From an uncultured Candidatus Saccharibacteria bacterium (GTDB taxonomy: Bacteria; Patescibacteriota; Doudnabacteria; UBA920), in the NCBI GenBank assembly GCA_964532425.1, contig CAZHIA010000005.1, positions 66,772 to 130,771 on the forward strand: DNA of 64,000 bases, read 5' to 3'. Shown here piece after piece: positions 440 to 58,955 of the stretch (positions are counted from its first letter, which is position 1; each line of letters begins with the position of its first letter). The notes beneath the pieces are model-generated. The model made no database searches and was not told the DNA's origin. It worked only from the letters and a program-made list of their open reading frames with translations. A program made the translations under genes and the position numbers.

Positions 440-492
440 ACTGTAGCGTGCCCATTTATGGGCTTCTTATGGCCGATAAATCGGCACGCTAC
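440..492. promoter_or_regulatory. Imperfect hairpin (gtagcgtgcc...ggcacgctac) in the lysS 5' region.
   Basis: A 10-bp inverted repeat flanks a roughly 30-nt loop immediately upstream of the lysS start. Function unknown. Confidence 0.3.
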
Positions 493-564
493 ACTATAGC
501 TTATGAATAATCTTGTTCAAATTATACCAAAAAGTGCGAAAAACAACAAAAAAGTACCAGTTGT

Positions 565-2624: not shown

Positions 2625-4691
<2,067 letters not shown>

Positions 4692-11975: not shown

Positions 11976-12437
11976 TCAGTGCTTCCCGTTACTGATAAAA
12001 CTCGTCCACTGCTTCCAGAGGTCCTCGCCTTCATCTTTAAAGGAGGACCAGAAAGCCGAAGGGTTGACTATCTTGACCCCTTGAAATTCTTCCAGTTTTA
12101 GCAGGGCATTATCGCTGCTCACCAGAAAGTCCGCCCGTGCTTCCACCGCGCTTTCGAGGATCTTATTGTCTTCGGGATCCTCGACAATGCGAATCTGGCG
12201 GCGATTGACCACCCAGTGGATCTTGGCAAACAGATCATCCAGCTGGTGGCGGTAATCATCATTGTCGATGAGCTGGGAAGCTATAAGTTTATTCTCCTGC
12301 AGGGTCTGGCGATTCGCGTAGGCCTCTATCTCTCCTGCCAGCACCGCATCGATGATCTTCTTTTCGTATGAGTAGTCGTCTTTAAAGCCGTTAATGAGAA
12401 CGTTGGTATCCAGGACTATCTTGGTAACATTTGACAT
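11976..12437 (-). CDS. PIN-domain protein (VapC-like putative ribonuclease)
   Basis: IVLDTNVLINGF ... DPEDNKILESAVEARADFLVSSD gives the PIN acidic residue pattern. The start codon lies inside a heptamer repeat block (MSNV = atg tca aat gtt). Confidence 0.8.
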   Translation of the reverse strand: MSNVTKIVLDTNVLINGFKDDYSYEKKIIDAVLAGEIEAYANRQTLQENKLIASQLIDNDDYRHQLDDLFAKIHWVVNRRQIRIVEDPEDNKILESAVEARADFLVSSDNALLKLEEFQGVKIVNPSAFWSSFKDEGEDLWKQWTSFISNGKH

Positions 12438-12457
12438 GTGACATTTGACCTTTGACC
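12426..12457. repeat. Heptamer repeat block (tttgaca, tgtgaca, tttgacc, tttgacc), left flank of the 4HB gene.
   Basis: 7-nt periodic TTTGAC units between the 4HB stop and the PIN start. Confidence 0.6.
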
Positions 12458-12465
12458 GCTTCCGA

Positions 12466-12852
12466 TTACTTCGTAGGGTTTTTTAATAGTACATCTCTAA
12501 ACGCAGTGAGTTGATCAGCAAGGTTTGCTCCTCTACTTAAAAATTCCTTGTGTTCTTCTTCATTAATATAATGATTATCTAAAGCGATATCTAAACAAGC
12601 AATAACTTCATTCAAAGAGGTATGCGATCTATTAAGAAATAGGGCGAAATCCTTATCGGTCCCTCTGTCGGATCCTTCTGCTATGTTAAGCAAAATCGAA
12701 TCCGCTGCGCGATACAGTTGGTTTGTTAAACTAAACAGTTCATATTGAGGAAAGTGGATCCTTGCTAGCTGTTTGACATCTATGACATATTTTCGGGCAT
12801 CCTGATAAACCGGAAAATTTCTAAATCGGAATTTTTTATCAGTGTTTCCCAT
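12466..12852 (-). CDS. four-helix-bundle protein (TIGR02436 / formerly 23S rRNA intervening-sequence protein family)
   Basis: FPVYQDARKYVIDV ... LTNQLYRAADSILLNIAEGS ... SLNEVIACLDIAL are family hallmarks. Confidence 0.8.
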   Translation of the reverse strand: MGNTDKKFRFRNFPVYQDARKYVIDVKQLARIHFPQYELFSLTNQLYRAADSILLNIAEGSDRGTDKDFALFLNRSHTSLNEVIACLDIALDNHYINEEEHKEFLSRGANLADQLTAFRDVLLKNPTK

Positions 12853-12885
12853 GTCAAATGTTAAAGGTTAATGGTCAAATGTTAT
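12853..12885. repeat. Heptamer repeat block in the opposite orientation (gtcaaat, gttaaag, gttaatg, gtcaaat), right flank of the 4HB gene.
   Basis: It abuts the 4HB ATG (aacatttgacATG on the coding strand). There is no SD. Confidence 0.6.
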
Positions 12886-18486: not shown

Positions 18487-18563
18487 TGGCGGGGACGGCG
18501 GGGCTCGAACCCGTAACCTCTCGCGTGACAGGCGAGTGCTCTAACCAATTGAGCTACGCCCCC
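18487..18563 (-). tRNA. tRNA-Asp (GTC)
   Basis: GGGGGCGTAGCTCAATTGGTTAGAGCACTCGCCTGTCACGCGAGAGGTTACGGGTTCGAGCCCCGCCGTCCCCGCCA. Anticodon loop CTGTCAC, discriminator G73, encoded CCA. Confidence 0.9.
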
Positions 18564-18717
18564 GTATATTACGCTACTTTGGCCCTGAACCATTCCCCGC
18601 CTTCGGCAGATCAGGTACAAGGCATGAACCAGTCGCACAGCGTGCCGCCCACAAGAAACACTCACGAGCTTATGGCTGTGCCATGAACCGGAGCGAATCC
18701 GATGAGCGACTGGTTCA

Positions 18718-18794
18718 TGGTGCCGGAGAGAGGAATTGCACCTCTGACCTTGGGCTTATGAGTCCCACGCTCTAACTAACTGAGCTACTCCGGC
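18718..18794 (-). tRNA. tRNA-Met (CAT), elongator type. tRNA-Ile2 (lysidine) cannot be excluded.
   Basis: GCCGGAGTAGCTCAGTTAGTTAGAGCGTGGGACTCATAAGCCCAAGG...CTCCGGCACCA. Fully paired G1:C72. Anticodon loop CTCATAA. Confidence 0.85.
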
Positions 18795-18971: not shown

Positions 18972-19048
18972 TGGTTGCGGGACCCGGACTCGAACCGGGA
19001 ACCTCCAGGTTATGAGCCTGGCGAGCTGCCAAATTGCTCTATCCCGCG
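18972..19048 (-). tRNA. initiator tRNA-fMet (CAT)
   Basis: CGCGGGATAGAGCAATTTGGCAGCTCGCCAGGCTCATAACCTGGAGGTTCCCGGTTCGAGTCCGGGTCCCGCAACCA. C1xA72 mismatch. 5' and 3' ends are near-identical to E. coli tRNA-fMet. Confidence 0.9.
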
Positions 19049-24312: not shown

Positions 24313-24400
24313 GACATTTAACATTTGACCATTGACCTTTGACAAATCATTGTCATTTTTGATTCTAAAATGGTCACATGTTACCTGTTAAAGGTCAAAT
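24313..24400. repeat. Heptamer (TTTGAC / TTTAAC / ATTGAC) repeat blocks in inverted arrangement in the atpD-atpC spacer.
   Basis: Left half in one orientation and right half in the other, giving a composite imperfect palindrome. Confidence 0.6.
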
Positions 24401-24401
24401 G

Positions 24402-25799
<1,398 letters not shown>

Positions 25800-28551: not shown

Positions 28552-28944
28552 TTATTCCTTTAACGATTGATTAAGATTATGCAACTGAGTCTTCACACTG
28601 GCATCAATGAGCGTATCATCAACTTTCACCACCACGCCACCCACTATACCTTCATCGATCTTAGTCTTGAATTCCGCTTTCCCCTGTACCACCTTGTTCA
28701 ATTCGTGGATAATGTTCGGATTAATCTCGCGCGCGAAGGTTACCTCCGCCTCCTTGATTCCTTGCCGCTTCAGCTGCAAAGACCGGTACGCAGCTTCAAT
28801 CTTGTCATGCAAACCGAGGTCACCGTTGGCTGCCAGGATGCGGACAAAGTTATCGAGAACCTTGCCATGGTCTTTCGGTGCCGTTTCGGAGATGGCATCC
28901 AGCAGGGCTTCGGCGTATTGGGTGGGAGTGAATTTGTTAGACAC
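28552..28944 (-). CDS. atpH: ATP synthase delta subunit (OSCP), short form (130 aa)
   Basis: Operon position plus an OSCP-like helical N-terminal domain. Confidence 0.7.
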   Translation of the reverse strand: MSNKFTPTQYAEALLDAISETAPKDHGKVLDNFVRILAANGDLGLHDKIEAAYRSLQLKRQGIKEAEVTFAREINPNIIHELNKVVQGKAEFKTKIDEGIVGGVVVKVDDTLIDASVKTQLHNLNQSLKE

Positions 28945-29031
28945 AATCGTATTTCCATTGTATTTCTATTTATTTCCATTGTATTTCGAAATATGGCTGA
29001 AATACATTGAAATAAAATTGAAATACTGTTG

Positions 29032-29592
29032 TTAAATGCTCTTAAGAGACTCTTTGATCAGTGCCTCGTCCTTCTTGGCGTCCAGTTTCTGCCTCAGAAT
29101 TTTTTCCGCGGCCTGCGTCACCATGTCGGCAATTTCGGCTTTTGCGCTGGACAAGGCTTTGTCCTTTTCCTGTTTGATCTGCGTCGAAGCTTGCTCAACC
29201 ACCTTCTGTTGTTCTTCCTTGGTCTGGGCAATGGCCCGGTCTTTGGCGGCTCCCGCCTCTGATTGGGCTTTCGTGACGATCTCAGACGCCTGCAGACGCG
29301 CCTTACTCATTTCTTCTTCACGCCACTTGGAGAATTCCTGCTTTTCTTTCTCCACGCGTTCCGCGTCTTGCAGGGATTTTTCTATCCGCTGGGTGCGGGA
29401 TTGAAGGCCCTTCACCAGGCCGGGAAGGATGAGTTTCCAAAAAAGCAGCAATAAAACCGCAAAGTTGACCAACTGAGCAATGAACAACTTGCCGTTCAAG
29501 CCGAGCGTGGCAATGCCGCCCGAAGAAGCACTTTCTGCTGCCACCGCTTCGGATGCTGCATGGGCAACTGGAATAAGAAATTGTATATCCAT
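29032..29592 (-). CDS. atpF: ATP synthase Fo subunit b
   Basis: N-terminal TM followed by a long charged coiled-coil. Confidence 0.85.
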   Translation of the reverse strand: MDIQFLIPVAHAASEAVAAESASSGGIATLGLNGKLFIAQLVNFAVLLLLFWKLILPGLVKGLQSRTQRIEKSLQDAERVEKEKQEFSKWREEEMSKARLQASEIVTKAQSEAGAAKDRAIAQTKEEQQKVVEQASTQIKQEKDKALSSAKAEIADMVTQAAEKILRQKLDAKKDEALIKESLKSI

Positions 29593-29747
29593 AAGTGTGT
29601 TTGAAATACAATGGAAATATATTGAAATAAATGGAAATACAATTGTATATCTACCGTATTTCTACTTTATTTCTATTGTATTTCTGTCGTTAATCTTAAG
29701 TTGTAAATCCCGATAATCGTCACAATGACCATTATCGGTTCTAAAAC

Positions 29748-30046: not shown

Positions 30047-30117
30047 GTCAACATTTGACACCTGACTTTTGACATTTGACCGAAAGGCCACATGTCAATG
30101 GTCAAAGGTTAAATGTT
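30047..30117. repeat. Heptamer TTTGAC-family composite palindrome in the atpB-atpE spacer.
   Basis: catttgac, ttttgac, atttgac on the left. gtcaatg, gtcaaag, ttaaatg on the right. Confidence 0.6.
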
Positions 30118-30126
30118 TGCAATTTG

Positions 30127-38896: not shown

Positions 38897-38993
38897 TGTA
38901 AGAAAAATTAAGACACCTCCGTATTACGAATTGGGTACACTGAAACGTAATTCGCAATACGTAATGCGTAATTGTTCCTAATTGTCTAAGATT

Positions 38994-42380: not shown

Positions 42381-44219
42381 TTATTTCTTTAAAACAGCCA
42401 AGAACGCTTCCTGCGGAATATCAACTTTACCGATTTTCTTCATTTTTTTCTTGCCGCGCTTCTGCTTGTTGAGAAGCTTCATCTTGCGGGTCACGTCGCC
42501 GCCGTAGAGGTAGCCGGTCACGTCCTTGCGCAGGGCAGAAATAGTCTCGCGCGCAATAACCTTGCCGCCGATAGCTGCCTGGATTGCGATCTCAAATTGG
42601 TGGCGCGGAATGAGCTGCTTGAGCTTTTCCACCAGTTCTTTACCATCAGTTTGGGCAACTGAGCGGTGCATGATGGCAGCGAGAGCCGGAACCGGCTCTC
42701 CTGCTACAAGGATGTCGACTTTGACCAAATCCCCTACCCGCTCTTCAATAAAATCATAATTCAGAGATGCATATCCGGAAGAAACCGACTTCAGTTTGTC
42801 GTAAAAATCCAGAATAATATTGGCCAGCGGCATCTCGAACATCATATCTACGCGCGTGTTGCCAATGTATTTGATATCTTTGGAAATAGCCCGGCGCTGG
42901 TTGGAAATTTCCATGATGGGACCGATATAATCCGTCGGCGTCAGGATATTGACTGACATCCACGGTTCATAGATCTCCTTGATGGTTGCGGGATCGGGAA
43001 ACTCCGCAGGGTTATGAATATAGAATTCCTCGCCGTTGGTTTTGACCACGCGGTAGGCTACGGAAGGTGCGGTCAGCACTAAATCCAGGTTATACTCGCG
43101 CATCAGGCGTTCCTGCACAATATCCATGTGCAAGAGGCCCAAAAACCCGGTCCGGAAACCGAAGCCAATGGACGGAATGTTGATCGGCTCGAATTCCAAA
43201 GCCGCATCGGATAGCTTGAGCTTTTCCATGGCATCGCGCAGCAGCGGGTAATCGTCTCCCGAGACTGGGAAAATGGTCGCATAGACCATGGGCTTAATTT
43301 GCTTGTACCCGGGCAGCTGGGTGACCTGCGATTTACCGGCGGAAAGCGTAACCGTATCTCCGACACGCGCCTTACTGACATCCCGCAAGCCGGTCACAAT
43401 GTACCCGACCTCACCCGTTTTAATCTCGTCCGACTTTTCCATTTTAGGATGGAAATAACCAACCTCAAGACTTTCCGCTTCGGTTTGAGAACCGATCATA
43501 AAGATCTTTTCGCGGTTTTTGAGGCTGCCATCCATGGCGCGGACAAACACAATAACTCCGCGATGAATGTCGTACATGGAATCGAAGATGAGGCCGCGGA
43601 ACGGTCTTTGCGGATCGCCTTTCGGCTGGGGTACGCGCTCGATAACTGCCTTTAAAATTTCCTCCACCCCTTCCCCGGTCTTGCCGGATGCATACAAAAT
43701 TTCGTCATCAGTAAACCCGAACGCGCTCTTTAACTCCTCAGCTGTCTTTTTGCGATCGGAGTTTGGCAGGTCAATCTTGTTTACGACCGGAATCAGTACA
43801 AGGTCATGTTCGAGCGCCAGGTAGACGTTAGCCAGGGTCTGGGCTTCTATGCCTTGGGTAGAGTCCACAACCAAAATCGCCCCCTCGCAGCACGCCAGCG
43901 AACGGGAAACTTCATAGGTAAAGTCCACATGACCCGGGGTATCAATTAAGTTCAAAGTGAAAAGTTCAAAGTTAGAAGTTTCTTCTCCGTCAATTTTTAA
44001 CTTTTCACTTTGAACTTTGAATGTATATTCCATCCTCACCGGCTGCAGTTTGATGGTAATGCCGCGTTCGCGTTCCAGATCCATTTGGTCCAGCAGCTGG
44101 TCTTTCATCTCCCGCTTGCTCACCGTATGTGTCACTTCCAAAAGCCGGTCAGCCAGTGTGGACTTGCCGTGATCGATATGCGCGATGATGCAGAAATTTC
44201 GTATGTGTGACTGGTCCAT
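42381..44219 (-). CDS. lepA: elongation factor 4 (LepA)
   Basis: NFCIIAHIDHGKSTLADRLL, DTPGHVDF and the LepA C-terminal domain. Contains an in-frame roughly 20-aa insertion encoded by a palindromic repeat. Confidence 0.95.
   Translation of the reverse strand: MDQSHIRNFCIIAHIDHGKSTLADRLLEVTHTVSKREMKDQLLDQMDLERERGITIKLQPVRMEYTFKVQSEKLKIDGEETSNFELFTLNLIDTPGHVDFTYEVSRSLACCEGAILVVDSTQGIEAQTLANVYLALEHDLVLIPVVNKIDLPNSDRKKTAEELKSAFGFTDDEILYASGKTGEGVEEILKAVIERVPQPKGDPQRPFRGLIFDSMYDIHRGVIVFVRAMDGSLKNREKIFMIGSQTEAESLEVGYFHPKMEKSDEIKTGEVGYIVTGLRDVSKARVGDTVTLSAGKSQVTQLPGYKQIKPMVYATIFPVSGDDYPLLRDAMEKLKLSDAALEFEPINIPSIGFGFRTGFLGLLHMDIVQERLMREYNLDLVLTAPSVAYRVVKTNGEEFYIHNPAEFPDPATIKEIYEPWMSVNILTPTDYIGPIMEISNQRRAISKDIKYIGNTRVDMMFEMPLANIILDFYDKLKSVSSGYASLNYDFIEERVGDLVKVDILVAGEPVPALAAIMHRSVAQTDGKELVEKLKQLIPRHQFEIAIQAAIGGKVIARETISALRKDVTGYLYGGDVTRKMKLLNKQKRGKKKMKKIGKVDIPQEAFLAVLKK
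43971..44041. repeat. 71-nt imperfect palindrome (ttcaaagtgaaaagttcaaagtt ... aacttttcactttgaactttgaa) inside lepA.
   Basis: Arms are reverse-complementary. In frame, it encodes FKVQSEKLKIDGEETSNFELFTL just before the G3 motif DTPGH. Confidence 0.55.
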
Positions 44220-44319
44220 AGATGCAGATATACAGATTAATGCAGATTTACAAATAACTACAGATAATCAGCCTCTATCTGTAGTTATCTGTAAATTTGT
44301 TATTATTTGTAGATTGGCA

Positions 44320-45918
44320 TTATTGGTTTTTATTATACAGAATCCGCTTGAAAAAATCCAGGGTCTTTTGGGCTTGTTCGAGCCTGGTTACCATCGTCAG
44401 GATTACAAAGACAGCTAAACCGGCACCAATCGACAATCCTGATTGAACGAAGATCCCGAACGTTGTCCGGGTGTTGACCAGCGGAGCGAACAGGCGGATA
44501 CAACCGTAGCTGACCAGCCCCATTCCCAGGCTTGCTATAGAAATTTTGTAGACGAAAATGGAGAGCTTGCGGTCGAACTCCTGGATGACATCGCGACTCC
44601 CAAGCTTACTGTGCAGGATAAGGAACAACAGAAGCGCATCCAGGGTCGTCGAAAGGGCAAAAGCCGACGCTATGCCGGTGAGCCCATAAGCCCTGCCCCA
44701 GAAGTACGCCAGTACTGCGTTAAGAATGATCGAGGACAGATTGGTGCAAACCGGTATGATCGTGTTATGGCGGGCATAAAAAGACTTGGCAAACAATGGA
44801 GACAAGCTCTGGCCAATCAACGAGAACGTAAAGATGCCCAGAGTGTTCAGTGTCGCCACGGTCTCAGGCCATCCGAATTTTCCATGGCCAAGCACCAGAC
44901 GAACGATATATGCACGGAATACCATCATCAGCACAGAGATCGGGACAATGAAGAACAGAATTTGCATCGCAGTACTGGCCAATGTATCGGCAAATTTTTC
45001 GAGCCGACCTTCCGCGTAATATTCCGACAACACCGGAAATGAAGCGGTGGCTACAGAAATGGCGAATATACCGAGCGGTACCGCTTGGAGATTGTTGGCA
45101 AAATTGAAGACACTCACCGACCCGGCAACCAGTATCGAGCCGACCGAAGTTCCAATGAGCAGGCTTATTTGAGAATTATCCATGCCCAAAATGCGCGGCA
45201 AAAAAAGCCGGCCAACTTGCCGCAACACCGGCTCCTTCCAGTCCACGCTTGCACTCCACCGATAGCCGAAACGTACTGCTTCCGGGATTTGCACCAGCAG
45301 ATGGCTAACAGCTCCAATTATTACCCCAAAACCGAGCCCCATGAGCCCTAACTTTGGATACAGGAAGAACAGCCCGAATATAATCCCGAGATTGTACATG
45401 ATCGGAGCCAGGCTCACGACCAGGAACTTTTTTTGGGAATTTAAAATGCTGGTAAAGACGTTGGAAATGGTAAAGATGATTGGCGACAGCAGGAACAACC
45501 TCGTTAGCCTGACCGTGTCCTCGAATTTCCCGTCCGTAAACCCCGGTACAAGCCCGTGGGCAATCTGCCGCGAGCCGGCGTACAGAATGGCACATATCAG
45601 AATAATGCTCAACGCCGAAATATTCAGCACTGAATTGGCGATCCGGTATGCCCGGTCTTTATCTTTCATCAACCACTCGGTGAATACCGGAATGAACGCC
45701 ACGGAGAGCGTGCCCAAAACAAGCAGGTTAAACGTAAAGTCAGGAATGCGGAATGCCGCGTAGTACGTGTCGAGCGTGTCTCCCGGGCCGATCTTGCCGG
45801 CCAGCAGCGAATCGCGCAGCAAAGCCACGAGTTTTGCCACAAGCGTAAACACCCCGACAATAATCGCGGCTTTAGTGATAGAAAAATTGGTTTCCAGGCT
45901 TTGAAGTTTTCGTATCAT
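44320..45918 (-). CDS. murJ: lipid II flippase MurJ
   Basis: 532 aa, 14-TM MviN/MurJ pattern. Confidence 0.85.
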   Translation of the reverse strand: MIRKLQSLETNFSITKAAIIVGVFTLVAKLVALLRDSLLAGKIGPGDTLDTYYAAFRIPDFTFNLLVLGTLSVAFIPVFTEWLMKDKDRAYRIANSVLNISALSIILICAILYAGSRQIAHGLVPGFTDGKFEDTVRLTRLFLLSPIIFTISNVFTSILNSQKKFLVVSLAPIMYNLGIIFGLFFLYPKLGLMGLGFGVIIGAVSHLLVQIPEAVRFGYRWSASVDWKEPVLRQVGRLFLPRILGMDNSQISLLIGTSVGSILVAGSVSVFNFANNLQAVPLGIFAISVATASFPVLSEYYAEGRLEKFADTLASTAMQILFFIVPISVLMMVFRAYIVRLVLGHGKFGWPETVATLNTLGIFTFSLIGQSLSPLFAKSFYARHNTIIPVCTNLSSIILNAVLAYFWGRAYGLTGIASAFALSTTLDALLLFLILHSKLGSRDVIQEFDRKLSIFVYKISIASLGMGLVSYGCIRLFAPLVNTRTTFGIFVQSGLSIGAGLAVFVILTMVTRLEQAQKTLDFFKRILYNKNQ

Positions 45919-48062: not shown

Positions 48063-48068
48063 AGGGAC

Positions 48069-48150
48069 ACATTTAACCTTTAACCATTAACATGTAACAA
48101 ATCCGCATTGTCCGAGTGTCTAGGTCAAATGTCAAATGTCACATGTCAAA
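48069..48150. repeat. Heptamer TTTAAC/TTTGAC-family composite palindrome between the DUF4012 gene and ftsW.
   Basis: catttaac, ctttaac, cattaac on the left. gtcaaat, gtcaaat, gtcacat, gtcaaat on the right. Confidence 0.6.
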
Positions 48151-48155
48151 TGTTT

Positions 48156-49317: not shown

Positions 49318-50727
49318 TCAGGAACGCGATAAATTCTTTACTAGTTCTTTAAAGCGTTCTCCCCTGTCTTTGTAATTTTTAAACATGCCGAAACTTGCGC
49401 ATGCGGGCGACAGCAGTACAACATCACCTGCTGTAGCAACAGAACGGGCTTGCCCGAGAATTTCTTCCATGGATGCAGCACCGGTCAGTACTTGCCCGTT
49501 AAATCCTCTTCCTTGTCCAAGCACTTCCCTGATCCGTTCAGCTTCCTGCCCTATGAGAATAACAGCTTTGATATTATGCGCCGAACGAATGACCTGTCCG
49601 AGCTCGGTAAAGTCGCTATGTTTGGTTGACCCCCCTAAAATAATAATCTCTGGTTCAGTAAAAGCTTTTATAGCGGCAATGGCTGTCTCAGGAACTGTAG
49701 AAAAAGAATCATTGTAGTATGCAACGCCTTCGTGGGCGCCAACCGGCTCAAGCCGATGTTCCAGCCCGGCAAAACTCTTAAGGACATCAGCCACCGCTTC
49801 CGGTTCGATGTCTAAGGCACCCGCTGCCGCGACCGCTGCGCAGACGTTCTCAAGATTATGACGCCCCTTCAGCTTAAGTTCATTGCATGGAAAGGAAAAA
49901 ATCCGTGGGAAGATTCCGACTGCGACCATTTGGTCCTGTTCGATAAAGCATCCCTCCCGCAGCTGTTCATGCGTGCTCACAGAAAGTTTCTTGTGAGCCT
50001 GCCCCATTTCACCAATGAGCCTGGTGGCGGGGTAGTCGATATTATAAATGGAAACATCTTCTCGCTTTTGATAGACCGTAAGCGAGCTTTTGGCAGCATG
50101 GTATTCGCGAATATGCCTATGTTGATCAAGATGCTCCTGGGTGACCATGAGACAAACCGCGATGTGAGGGCTTTTGTGCAGATCCTGAAGCTGGAAACTA
50201 GAAAGCTCGAATACCACTATATCGCGCTCCGTCATGTCATCCAAAAATTCGAACGGCTGGATCTTGCCGATGTTGCCGGTCAGGAACATTTGACCTTTGA
50301 CATTTGACCATTGACCATTCAACTTCAACATTTCATAAATAAGAGTGCTGGTGGTTCCCTTGCCTTTCGTGCCGGTCACTCCGACAATCTTACCCGGGCA
50401 GTGGTCAAAGAACCATTTGGTCTGGCTCGTGATTTTCAACCCCTTGTGTTCGGCCGCTAACAGATCAGGGTGCAGCCGCCATAGTCCCGGACTACGGAAG
50501 GCCGCGTGAAAGCCGGTAAGTTCTTTCAGACAGTCCGGACCGAAGATAAAATTGAGGTTGAGCGCTTTTATTTTTTCTTGTTCTTCCGGCGCCCATTGTT
50601 CCCACGGGCGCTGGTCAAAAAGCACGGGGGTAATGCCGTGCTTGAGCAAATATTCGGTAACAGCCTGCCCTTCGCGTCCAAAACCCAATACCGCGGTGAG
50701 TTTTTGATCCAAATCTTTGAGTTCCAT
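49318..50727 (-). CDS. murD: UDP-N-acetylmuramoyl-L-alanine--D-glutamate ligase
   Basis: Start at the ATG at 50727 (MELKDLDQKLTAVLGFGREGQAV). GVTGTKGKGTT is the Mur ligase P-loop. The track ORF extends further upstream through an overlap. Confidence 0.85.
   Translation of the reverse strand: MELKDLDQKLTAVLGFGREGQAVTEYLLKHGITPVLFDQRPWEQWAPEEQEKIKALNLNFIFGPDCLKELTGFHAAFRSPGLWRLHPDLLAAEHKGLKITSQTKWFFDHCPGKIVGVTGTKGKGTTSTLIYEMLKLNGQWSNVKGQMFLTGNIGKIQPFEFLDDMTERDIVVFELSSFQLQDLHKSPHIAVCLMVTQEHLDQHRHIREYHAAKSSLTVYQKREDVSIYNIDYPATRLIGEMGQAHKKLSVSTHEQLREGCFIEQDQMVAVGIFPRIFSFPCNELKLKGRHNLENVCAAVAAAGALDIEPEAVADVLKSFAGLEHRLEPVGAHEGVAYYNDSFSTVPETAIAAIKAFTEPEIIILGGSTKHSDFTELGQVIRSAHNIKAVILIGQEAERIREVLGQGRGFNGQVLTGAASMEEILGQARSVATAGDVVLLSPACASFGMFKNYKDRGERFKELVKNLSRS
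50286..50325. repeat. Heptamer TTTGAC block inside murD.
   Basis: On the coding strand tggtcaa atgtcaa aggtcaa is 21 nt. It adds WSNVKGQ between the conserved EMLK..G and GNIG. Confidence 0.6.
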
Positions 50728-50806
50728 TGTAATTAATTTTACCACTTTTTCAAGGATTCTCAAAATTAAAAGGGAGCCGCTTAAGCGACCCCTTGCCAGC
50801 CGGCTG

Positions 50807-51613
50807 CTAGGCCGGCGTAATTTCGTACCGCGGTCCATGGCTGCCAATGCACCGCTCGCCGCCAAGACCTTCAAAAAGCAAGGCCCAGCCTCCGCACTGC
50901 GGATCAAAGGCGAATGTCTCCCGGGCACCGGTCGGTTTTCCTGCTTCGTCTGTTCTTTCGATCGTAAGCTCGGACCGCAAATCGGATACAACCTGGACCG
51001 TATCGATGACAAGACCGCCTTCCTTGATCTGAACTTTTGCCCCTGGTTCAAACAACACCCGGCCTGACCGATCACGTTTAGCCACGTATCCTGCGGTTGC
51101 GGTGCCAGTTTCGTTGCTGGCACAATCGAACTCGCACTTGCCAAACGGAATAGTAGGCGGGATGTTCAATTTGCACACAGCAGTCGCGAGCGCACTTAAG
51201 GCAATAAAACCGATCTTCGGCTGTTTTGACGCTTGGTCAGCAAGAGCCATAGGCAACCGGAAGACTTCTTTCAGATCAGCGGTGTTCTCCAAGGCTGACC
51301 CAAGCCCACAACTTTCTTCCAGCCAGTCCCCCTCGGGGCCATCGATCACCACCGGATACACGTATGTGAGTACGTCTTCATGGTCTATATGACCTTTGTG
51401 AAAAACGTGCCAGGGCGTGAAGTATGAAAAGTCCGTCCCGCGGCAGATTTGGGACAGAATGACATCCCAATCCCACTGCTTCGGATCCGTGTCCAAGCCT
51501 TCCGGCCAAAAGACACTTTCTCCGTCTTGATGATTGTCCAGCACGACGACTCTCGAGAGTTCCGCCCCTTGTTCAGTTACTTTGCGTACGACTCCAACTG
51601 GTACGATGAACAT
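50807..51613 (-). CDS. hypothetical protein (268 aa, acidic)
   Basis: Strong SD gaggagga. No family recognised. Confidence 0.55.
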   Translation of the reverse strand: MFIVPVGVVRKVTEQGAELSRVVVLDNHQDGESVFWPEGLDTDPKQWDWDVILSQICRGTDFSYFTPWHVFHKGHIDHEDVLTYVYPVVIDGPEGDWLEESCGLGSALENTADLKEVFRLPMALADQASKQPKIGFIALSALATAVCKLNIPPTIPFGKCEFDCASNETGTATAGYVAKRDRSGRVLFEPGAKVQIKEGGLVIDTVQVVSDLRSELTIERTDEAGKPTGARETFAFDPQCGGWALLFEGLGGERCIGSHGPRYEITPA

Positions 51614-58845: not shown

Positions 58846-58892
58846 GGATATAGTATACGATATGTAATTGCAGTTAGATAGTACAAACTCAC

Positions 58893-58955
58893 AACATTTG
58901 ACATTTGACTTTCTGCGACCCAAGTCAAAGGTTAATGGTCAAACGTCAAATGTTG
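58893..58955. repeat. Heptamer TTTGAC-family composite palindrome between the TM protein and the ATPase gene.
   Basis: acatttgacatttgact ... gtcaaaggttaatggtcaaacgtcaaatgtt. Confidence 0.6.

Follow-up and report, generated by a model that had tools for sequence, protein, structure and literature searches.

The 64,000-nt stretch of DNA analysed here (the window) is part of contig CAZHIA010000005.1 from an uncultured Candidatus Saccharibacteria bacterium that GTDB places among the Doudnabacteria. Its lepA gene, a 612-aa open reading frame (ORF) on the minus strand (42381..44219), hosts a short palindromic insertion that is the subject of this work. The product is elongation factor 4 (EF4, or LepA), as seen from its Pfam domains GTP_EFTU, GTP_EFTU_D2, EFG_C and LepA_C and from an E-value of 2e-70 to solved EF4 structures. 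Hereafter WIN denotes the window's own lepA, L-numbers denote fetched loci and P-numbers homologous proteins. A preliminary description, made from the sequence without database searches, had placed a 71-nt palindrome with a 25-nt centre at 43971-44041. A strong inverted repeat is indeed present, but the coordinates were ~20 nt off, with the quoted strings lying at 43951-43973 and 43999-44022, and the 23-mers given as arms are not exact nested reverse complements. The best inverted repeat instead consists of two 26-nt arms, 43948-43973 and 43992-44017, which are complementary at 24 of 26 positions and separated by an 18-nt spacer. Its core is a perfect 19-bp stem, and the whole hairpin spans 70 nt and is in frame.

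All parts of the hairpin are read on the minus strand. In mRNA sense, the 5′ arm (AAGTTCAAAGTGAAAAGTTAAAAATT; 43992..44017) specifies K68-I76 (KVQSEKLKI) and repeats, in inverted form, the 3′ arm. The spacer, or loop (43974..43991), encodes D77-S82, in which DGEE is the beta-turn matched in the alignment by the DGEE turn of Thermus EF4, and the 3′ arm (AACTTTGAACTTTTCACTTTGAACTT; 43948..43973) encodes N83-L91. The outer 11 nt of the 3′ arm (ACTTTGAACTT; 43948-43958) are native, conserved T-L-N-L codons, preceded by the TTC codon of Phe87 (43959..43961). The native block T88-L-N-L-I92 and the G3 motif D93-T-P-G-H97 that follows it (together 43929..43958) include columns that are invariant in the alignment. 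The peptide that had been quoted as standing before NLIDTPGHVDF, ...EYTFKVQSEKLKIDGEETSNFELFTLNLIDTPGH, is encoded exactly as given.

The mRNA-sense fold of the hairpin reaches -27.6 kcal/mol, compared with -11.3 +/- 2.6 kcal/mol for 200 dinucleotide shuffles (z -6.3), none of which folds as well (0/200), and a separate composition-preserving shuffle test gives z -6.2. We estimate the chance of a perfect 19-bp stem with a loop of at most 40 nt in 64 kb at ~1e-5 to 3e-4. With its 26-nt terminal inverted repeats and fold z of -6.3, the element is a palindrome whose arms are themselves heptamer arrays, able to pair in several registers. Tandem Repeats Finder (TRF) assigns the 3′ arm (43948-43973) a period of 7 with 3.7 copies, or a period of 14 with 2.4 copies and 89% matches, and the 5′ arm (43995-44021) a period of 7 with 3.4-3.9 copies, so that each arm holds at least three tandem 7-nt units. 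At one of the two arm mismatches, a perfect complement of the left-arm codon TTA would create an in-frame TAA stop in the right arm. The insert segment has a GC content of 27%, against ~50% for the window, and its sequence is identical in a contig from a separate Logan assembly (L001). Rfam returned no family match for the element, its sole matches being four tRNAs. Readings of the element as an intein, an intron, a diversity-generating retroelement or clustered regularly interspaced short palindromic repeats (CRISPR) were set aside by reasoning alone, as it is 70 nt long and translated, and nothing in the material examined pointed to the associated genes or repeats.

Within the protein, the extra residues fall into two blocks. 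The HMMER alignment with solved EF4 (5imq, 4w2e, 2ywe) reads YTFK[VQSEKLKI]DGEE[TSNFEL]FTLNLIDTPGH for WIN versus YRAK--------DGEE------YVFHLIDTPGH, and 3cb4 is likewise 14 residues shorter than WIN LepA. The eight residues VQSEKLKI (43992-44015, minus strand) and the six residues TSNFEL (43962-43979, minus strand) are placed symmetrically about the beta2-beta3 turn, the last one lying five residues before the G3 motif. Because the extra residues flank the turn in this way, the loop of the DNA hairpin encodes the turn and its arms encode two strand extensions. The palindrome is codon-aligned, with V/N, Q/L, S/T, E/F and K/L specified by reverse-complement codon pairs, and therefore one strand is polar and the other hydrophobic. 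An AlphaFold2 model built from 56 close homologues (mean pLDDT 65) predicts strands at residues 61-68 and 84-92, with residues 69-83 at low confidence. The alignments bear out the description of the segment as an in-frame palindromic insertion that is specific to the lineage and directly precedes the G3 motif. It is also longer than in E. coli LepA, as claimed, but by a measured 14 residues rather than ~20, the same figure applying against Thermus and Aquifex. Orthologue alignment, which had been proposed as a check, puts the segment at +14 residues versus solved EF4 and +15 versus close relatives with the 20-aa form. At most 21 aa separate RGITIK from DTPGH, the interval in which the segment was measured, in 73 of the 120 best LepA homologues (76-87% identical), so that WIN carries an in-frame insertion in a conserved gene that is absent from orthologues.

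The insert resembles the codons beside it. The native x-L-N-L-I codons (block ACTTTGAACTTAAT) form a 7-nt quasi-repeat that reads ACTTTGA|ACTTAAT in WIN and, for most relatives, ATCTTAA|ATCTAAT. The sequence ACTTTGAACTT recurs as an exact direct copy 14 nt upstream of the native 11 nt, inside the 3′ arm, and an exact inverted copy of the same 11 nt makes up the outer part of the 5′ arm, 44 nt away. The insert thus holds a reverse-complement copy within ~100 nt of its source, which is a signature of a template switch. Among the 60 7-mers of the insert, 21 are within one mismatch of its own native block or the reverse complement of that block (9 direct and 12 inverted) where 5.4 are expected, and 0/300 shuffles reach this combined total. 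The same test finds significant local templating in 12 of 26 insert-bearing loci. The inserts of WIN and L032 have 20-27 matches to natives of the ACTTTRAACTT type and 0-1 to those of the ATCYTAAATCT type, and the inserts of L009, L013, L015 and L037 show the reverse, matching ATCYTAAATCT natives and hardly ACTTTRAACTT. Judged from these matches, the make-up of an insert follows whichever codons its own gene uses in the native block. Among the other inserts, native codons expanded as (ATCTTAA)n give the frequent 'ILNPKSYILNL' forms, and the 'NSEYILNL' forms are a perfect 22-nt palindrome with native codons at its centre.

Copies of the element elsewhere were looked for in the window, which is part of the genome, and in 161 fetched loci. 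At up to three mismatches the 64-kb window holds no other copy of the arm. The 161 loci hold no other copy apart from the element's own locus and the homologous lepA site of L032. The proposal that the insert belongs to a third 'sequence family' of inserted elements is not supported, given this lack of a second copy and its make-up from direct and inverted copies of adjacent native codons. No target-site duplication was seen at its ends on reading the flanks by eye, and its sequence is not foreign to the host, the outer 11 nt of one arm being conserved host T-L-N-L codons, of which the insert holds more copies than expected.

Two relatives share something of the WIN insert. L032 has a homologous insert (ELKVESGKLKEGEKGSPLNFQLYTLN) in which 23 of 29 WIN pairs are kept, while in L002 the left arm is weakly similar and the hairpin has decayed (10/29 pairs). 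Conservation of the segment at protein level in relatives without a palindrome had been named as the finding that would speak against an insertion. It is not what the relatives show, as most lack the segment altogether and only L032 and, weakly, L002 share it. Between WIN and L032 no clean compensatory pair was found in the WIN register, and we therefore make no claim of covariation for the WIN element. In 111 of the 120 homologues a Tyr precedes [I/T]LNLI; WIN has Phe (TTC) there, and with this codon CTTTTCAC and GTGAAAAG of the other arm are exactly complementary. A change from TAT (Tyr) to TTC (Phe) would have raised arm complementarity, its ancestral state being drawn from only L032 and L002 in a star-like LepA tree. 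As far as these codons go, the change fits arm-to-arm copying that overrode a conserved position.

The tip of the LepA beta2-beta3 hairpin is a hot spot for unrelated inserts. Beyond the 73 homologues with short segments, 46 of the 120 have 24-53 aa, mutually unrelated, and one has 167 aa; the E. coli LepA segment has 20 aa. No relative closer than 87% identity emerged from genome and metagenome scans, and the nearest WIN relatives (10% divergence) have no insert. In a neighbour-joining tree of LepA, forms with and without an insert are intermingled. Loop-masked trees of the same kind are star-like, uniting WIN with L032 in 0/100 bootstraps and with L002 in 25/100, and they are compatible with either one or several origins of the WIN-type insert. 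Folding was judged by composition-preserving shuffles, since a comparison with other segments of the gene is confounded by the low GC of the inserts. By this measure the DNA folds at z<-2 in 12 of 24 insert-bearing loci (8 of them at z<-3) and in 1 of 24 without an insert. The lepA site is the exact position of 14 of the 19 heptamer arrays present in 253 kb of Doudnabacteria loci, and unit number and sequence there differ between species. A protein search with the 47-aa segment alone returned one irrelevant fragment, the E-values being too weak for such short queries. Outside the clade, 102 fetched lepA loci have 16-22 aa at this position, and long inserts of the same style occur only in L048 and L097. 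These two, from Parcubacteria (48 aa) and from a metagenome contig whose LepA is 54% identical to that of WIN (65 aa), follow one layout at the lepA site, in which hairpins nested in the centre are enclosed by a heptamer array in direct orientation, for example (AAATCCC)5, and one in inverted orientation, and the native FVLNL/YILNL codons are surrounded by a perfect palindrome.

The same site also takes inserts of other kinds. Class-B inserts are found in L004 (341-401), L007 (3204-3262), L008 (3204-3270) and L090 (3204-3261), and in proteins P0016, P0026 and P0121. They are GC-richer, of the 'DVGA...PTNY' type, with termini TGTAG...CTACA and no relation to native codons, and the insert of L004 forms a perfect 25-bp stem. 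Their arms covary, with both sides changed in 9 of 22 pairs across four species. The same termini delimit intergenic hairpins at L008 7751-7780, L021 4895-4923 and window 442-493, and from their sequences the class-B hairpins look like a dispersed family akin to repetitive extragenic palindromes (REPs). In three Doudnabacteria metagenome-assembled genomes (MAGs), this LepA hairpin tip holds an entire GxxExxY protein in frame (L024 3241-3600, L089 3262-3621 and L036 3238-3594), matching TIGR04256/PF13366 over profile positions 1-116 of 116. These inserts are flanked by inverted ACGGAC/GTCCGT arrays, and the flank duplex of L024 has z -5.3.

Hairpins of the form (TTTGACN)n / (NGTCAAA)n, with conserved termini AACATTTGAC...GTCAAATGTT and differing loops, are dispersed over the window. 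Four of them (24319-24404, ~30047-30120, ~48066-48155 and 58892-58955) are intergenic and without an ORF, and they look like non-autonomous copies of one dispersed family. Arrays with the same termini stand inverted at 12425-12457 (TAACATTTGAC...) and 12851-12885 (...GTCAAATGTTA), with a duplex z of -6.5, and between them lies a gene (ORF 12466-12852, minus strand) for a 128-aa four-helix-bundle protein, or '23S rRNA IVS protein' (IVS, intervening sequence; PF05635, TIGR02436). This cassette (12425-12885) sits between a PIN-domain gene and an NYN-domain gene, an IVS-like architecture outside rRNA. A tblastn search of the fetched loci found no further four-helix-bundle or GxxExxY genes. The WIN element has an 18-nt loop without an ORF and termini unlike TAACATTTGAC; a loop ORF of the cassette kind is present at the lepA site in L024, L036 and L089. 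The insert of L027 at that site is made of the same GTCAAAK heptamers as the window's dispersed family.

Single (TTTGACN)n arrays, none of them a palindrome, also occur in frame on the minus strand in gyrB (ORF 2625-4688; array 2917-2946, 11 residues) and in murD (ORF 49318-51144; array 50286-50319), where the array encodes NGQWSNVKGQMF and adds ~6 aa relative to solved MurD structures. The preliminary description had likened the lepA insert to other in-frame palindromic insertions; the arrays in gyrB and murD do not support that likeness. Period-7 arrays of at least three units number 10 in the window, versus 0-4 for periods 5, 6 and 8-11. A second heptamer unit common to several genomes, (AATWCGY)n, is found at non-orthologous positions: window 38946-38972, L022 4903-4929 and L023 4935-5004, the last two just downstream of lepA.

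Taken from the sequence comparisons above, the WIN element is probably a locally templated, tolerated in-frame hairpin insertion and not an imported one. The anatomy, the derivation from local sequence, the hot spot and the in-frame position about the turn are shown by the data. We infer the following order of events and replication mechanism. Replication slippage on the native 7-nt quasi-repeat ACTTTGA|ACTTAAT would have given a short heptamer or 14-mer array on the beta3 side, and intrastrand template switching, that is, fold-back copying as in quasipalindrome mutagenesis, would have laid down its inverted copy on the beta2 side. Later template switching may then have homogenised the arms, converting the conserved Tyr codon to Phe. 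Only products in multiples of 3 and without stop codons would have survived. Such in-frame products would be tolerated since the beta2-beta3 hairpin of the G domain faces the solvent and the site lies at its tip, where the arms lengthen a protein hairpin, and the insertion is most likely neutral or nearly so. A single template switch is known to produce a whole or perfect hairpin, and the process is also known to make arms homogeneous and inverted repeats longer (PMC10710096, PMC8794818, PMC13100816, PMC5453318), while the excess of heptamer repeats in bacteria has been put down to polymerase slippage (PMC4679880, PMC4692102).

Several points weigh against this account. Each of the proposed steps alone (+14 nt and ~+31 nt) shifts the frame, which requires them to have taken place together or in close succession. 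The search for copies covered ~6-8% of a genome assumed to be ~1 Mb in size, and the ancestral states rest on two relatives. In other lineages, the same lepA site holds dispersed TGTAG...CTACA hairpins and an ORF-bearing cassette, and import of hairpins into it therefore does occur. By eye, the window's dispersed unit TTTGACN and the lepA unit TTTGAAC differ at only two positions. The pairing kept in L032 (23/29) or the covariation of class B (9/22 pairs) could also reflect selection on the hairpin.

That the element is a small mobile palindrome transposed in frame into lepA, similar to a Rickettsia palindromic element (RPE), a miniature inverted-repeat transposable element (MITE) or a REP or its hairpin-forming doublet (REPIN), seems rather unlikely to us. 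Its likeness to native codons would then reflect target preference or later arm-to-host homogenisation. Mobile hairpins would account for the window family with termini AACATTTGAC...GTCAAATGTT, present at no fewer than four intergenic sites and once more around the four-helix-bundle gene, for the GTCAAAK heptamers of the L027 insert, for the termini common to class-B inserts (L004, L007, L008, L090) and intergenic hairpins (L008, L021, window), and for an insert that is AT-rich (27% GC versus ~50% in the window). However, the lepA unit sequence is unlike that of the dispersed family, neither the window nor the 161 loci hold a second copy, the flanks as read show no target-site duplication, the outer 11 nt of one arm are conserved host codons, and the 7-mers of the insert covary with host codon usage. 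A wider reading, which we consider unlikely, takes the LepA beta2-beta3 tip in Patescibacteria as a general sink for DNA hairpins whose occupants are stages of one system, with IVS-type cassettes homing to DNA hairpin tips (rRNA helices, intergenic stems and coding beta-hairpins) and the same mechanism keeping the arms complementary. Short-repeat palindromes like that of WIN would here be empty landing pads or remnants, the dispersed TGTAG...CTACA hairpins another stage, and hairpins with a selfish ORF in the loop a further one. The loop-ORF stage would be represented by GxxExxY in lepA of L024, L036 and L089 and by the four-helix-bundle gene at window 12425-12885.

The stability of the stem (z -6.3), its pairing largely kept in L032, the two-sided changes in 9 of 22 class-B pairs at the same site and the folds at z<-2 in 12 of 24 inserts versus 1 of 24 insert-free loci would all be expected of a hairpin selected at the nucleic-acid level. 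Such a hairpin might, for example, tune LepA levels as an RNase III site or, as an mRNA stem, make ribosomes pause between G2 and G3, and it would be kept by compensatory evolution. We nevertheless hold this to be quite improbable, as 73 of the 120 close homologues, the nearest included, do without an insert; the inserts that exist are wholly different in sequence, length and stability, the short ones being direct repeats without a stem; the pairing is lost in L002 (10/29); no Rfam family matches; and template switching alone can mimic compensatory change (PMC8794818). Both transposition and selection on the hairpin stay in contention for the site as a whole, because it also takes hairpins that are not locally derived, and both are less likely for the WIN element because its insert covaries with the native codons. 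Equally doubtful is an adaptive role for the longer protein hairpin. LepA would then have a surface loop kept hypervariable by diversifying selection, for instance to evade some factor that binds LepA, and the palindrome would only be the means of generating the variation. Extreme variation in length and sequence is limited to one loop of an otherwise 76-87% identical protein and recurs in a second group of the Candidate Phyla Radiation (CPR; L048 in Parcubacteria, and the unassigned L097), yet the inserted peptides are low-complexity translations of repeats with a low-confidence tip in the AlphaFold2 model, and the variation follows DNA repeat structure and not any protein property. We know of no binding partner of this LepA loop. 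An assembly or amplification artefact, such as a fold-back chimera, is very improbable indeed: palindromes can come from library preparation, but this insert is in frame and free of stop codons, the NCBI record and the separate Logan assembly are identical, a homologous insert occurs in the unrelated MAG L032, and dozens of analogous inserts come from independent MAGs.

Set beside known systems, the lepA element by its sequence bears the signatures of template-switch products and of heptamer simple sequence repeats (SSRs), and it is RPE-like in outcome. RPEs are also palindromic DNA lying in frame in housekeeping genes and translated where the fold tolerates it (PMC10969869). They differ in being ~100-150 bp long, found in Rickettsia, foreign in sequence and organized in multi-copy dispersed families with a conserved peptide, whereas the lepA element is ~70 nt long, single-copy in the sequence searched and derived from the host's adjacent codons. 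Quasipalindrome or template-switch mutations (TSMs) likewise write inverted copies of nearby sequence, create or perfect an entire stem, and homogenise and enlarge its arms; they also bring multi-nucleotide changes towards higher complementarity, of which the Phe codon may be a case (PMC10710096, PMC8794818, PMC13100816, PMC5453318). Most TSMs come from eukaryotic non-coding DNA, miRNA and rRNA stems and E. coli reporters, while the lepA product is translated, joined with heptamer slippage and recurrent at one codon-defined hot spot across a bacterial clade. The heptamer SSRs, such as the short tandemly repeated repetitive (STRR) sequences of cyanobacteria and TAACTGA of Beggiatoa, have tandem 7-nt units, an over-represented period of 7 and occasional in-frame cases (PMC4679880, PMC4692102). 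They are mostly intergenic direct arrays of one favoured unit, whereas in lepA the local codons dictate the unit, and an inverted array pairs with the direct one in an intragenic hairpin.

REPs and REPINs are likewise short imperfect palindromes forming hairpins (PMC3116915), but they are extragenic, multi-copy and mobilised by REP-associated tyrosine transposases (RAYTs), in contrast to the intragenic, single-copy lepA element. No RAYT turned up among five ORFs scanned against Pfam, a scan not aimed at RAYT. The IVSs of 23S rRNA have a stem of flanking inverted repeats at the tip of an existing hairpin and sometimes a loop ORF (PMC4990558), features echoed by the IVS-like ORF cassettes at window 12425-12885 and, with GxxExxY, in the lepA hairpin of three relatives. 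IVSs reside in rRNA and are excised by RNase III; the lepA element has no ORF and is translated. A literature search on in-frame palindromic insertions in the CPR found nothing relevant; it was not aimed at LepA. In essence, the element would be a product of known mutational processes whose outcome resembles that of RPEs.

On the reading of local templating, the element would be a clear bacterial example of replication errors, slippage together with template switching, writing new translated sequence, by which a DNA hairpin lengthens a protein hairpin of a translation GTPase that is universally conserved. RPE-like in-frame palindromes would then not need to be mobile, a point that bears on the annotation of CPR genomes and on the use of LepA as a phylogenetic marker. 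The hot spot also offers a natural series on the birth, homogenisation and loss of inverted repeats, from no insert through direct heptamer arrays and covarying hairpins to a loop ORF, and this series bears as well on whether IVS-type selfish genes target hairpin tips.

Further repeats of other make-up are present in the window. A 99-nt imperfect palindrome at 44222-44320 (45-nt arms, 78% complementary, -41 kcal/mol), built from CAGAT-type words of 8-10 nt, takes up the entire spacer between the murJ stop and the lepA start. Two hairpins of GTATTTC/GAAATAC words with a period of ~11, at 28943-29032 and 29601-29685, bracket the gene for the B subunit of ATP synthase (29032-29592). Three tRNA genes are encoded on the minus strand at 18490-18563, 18721-18794 and 18975-19048, with a 20-nt inverted repeat (18623-18642 / 18700-18719) between the first two.

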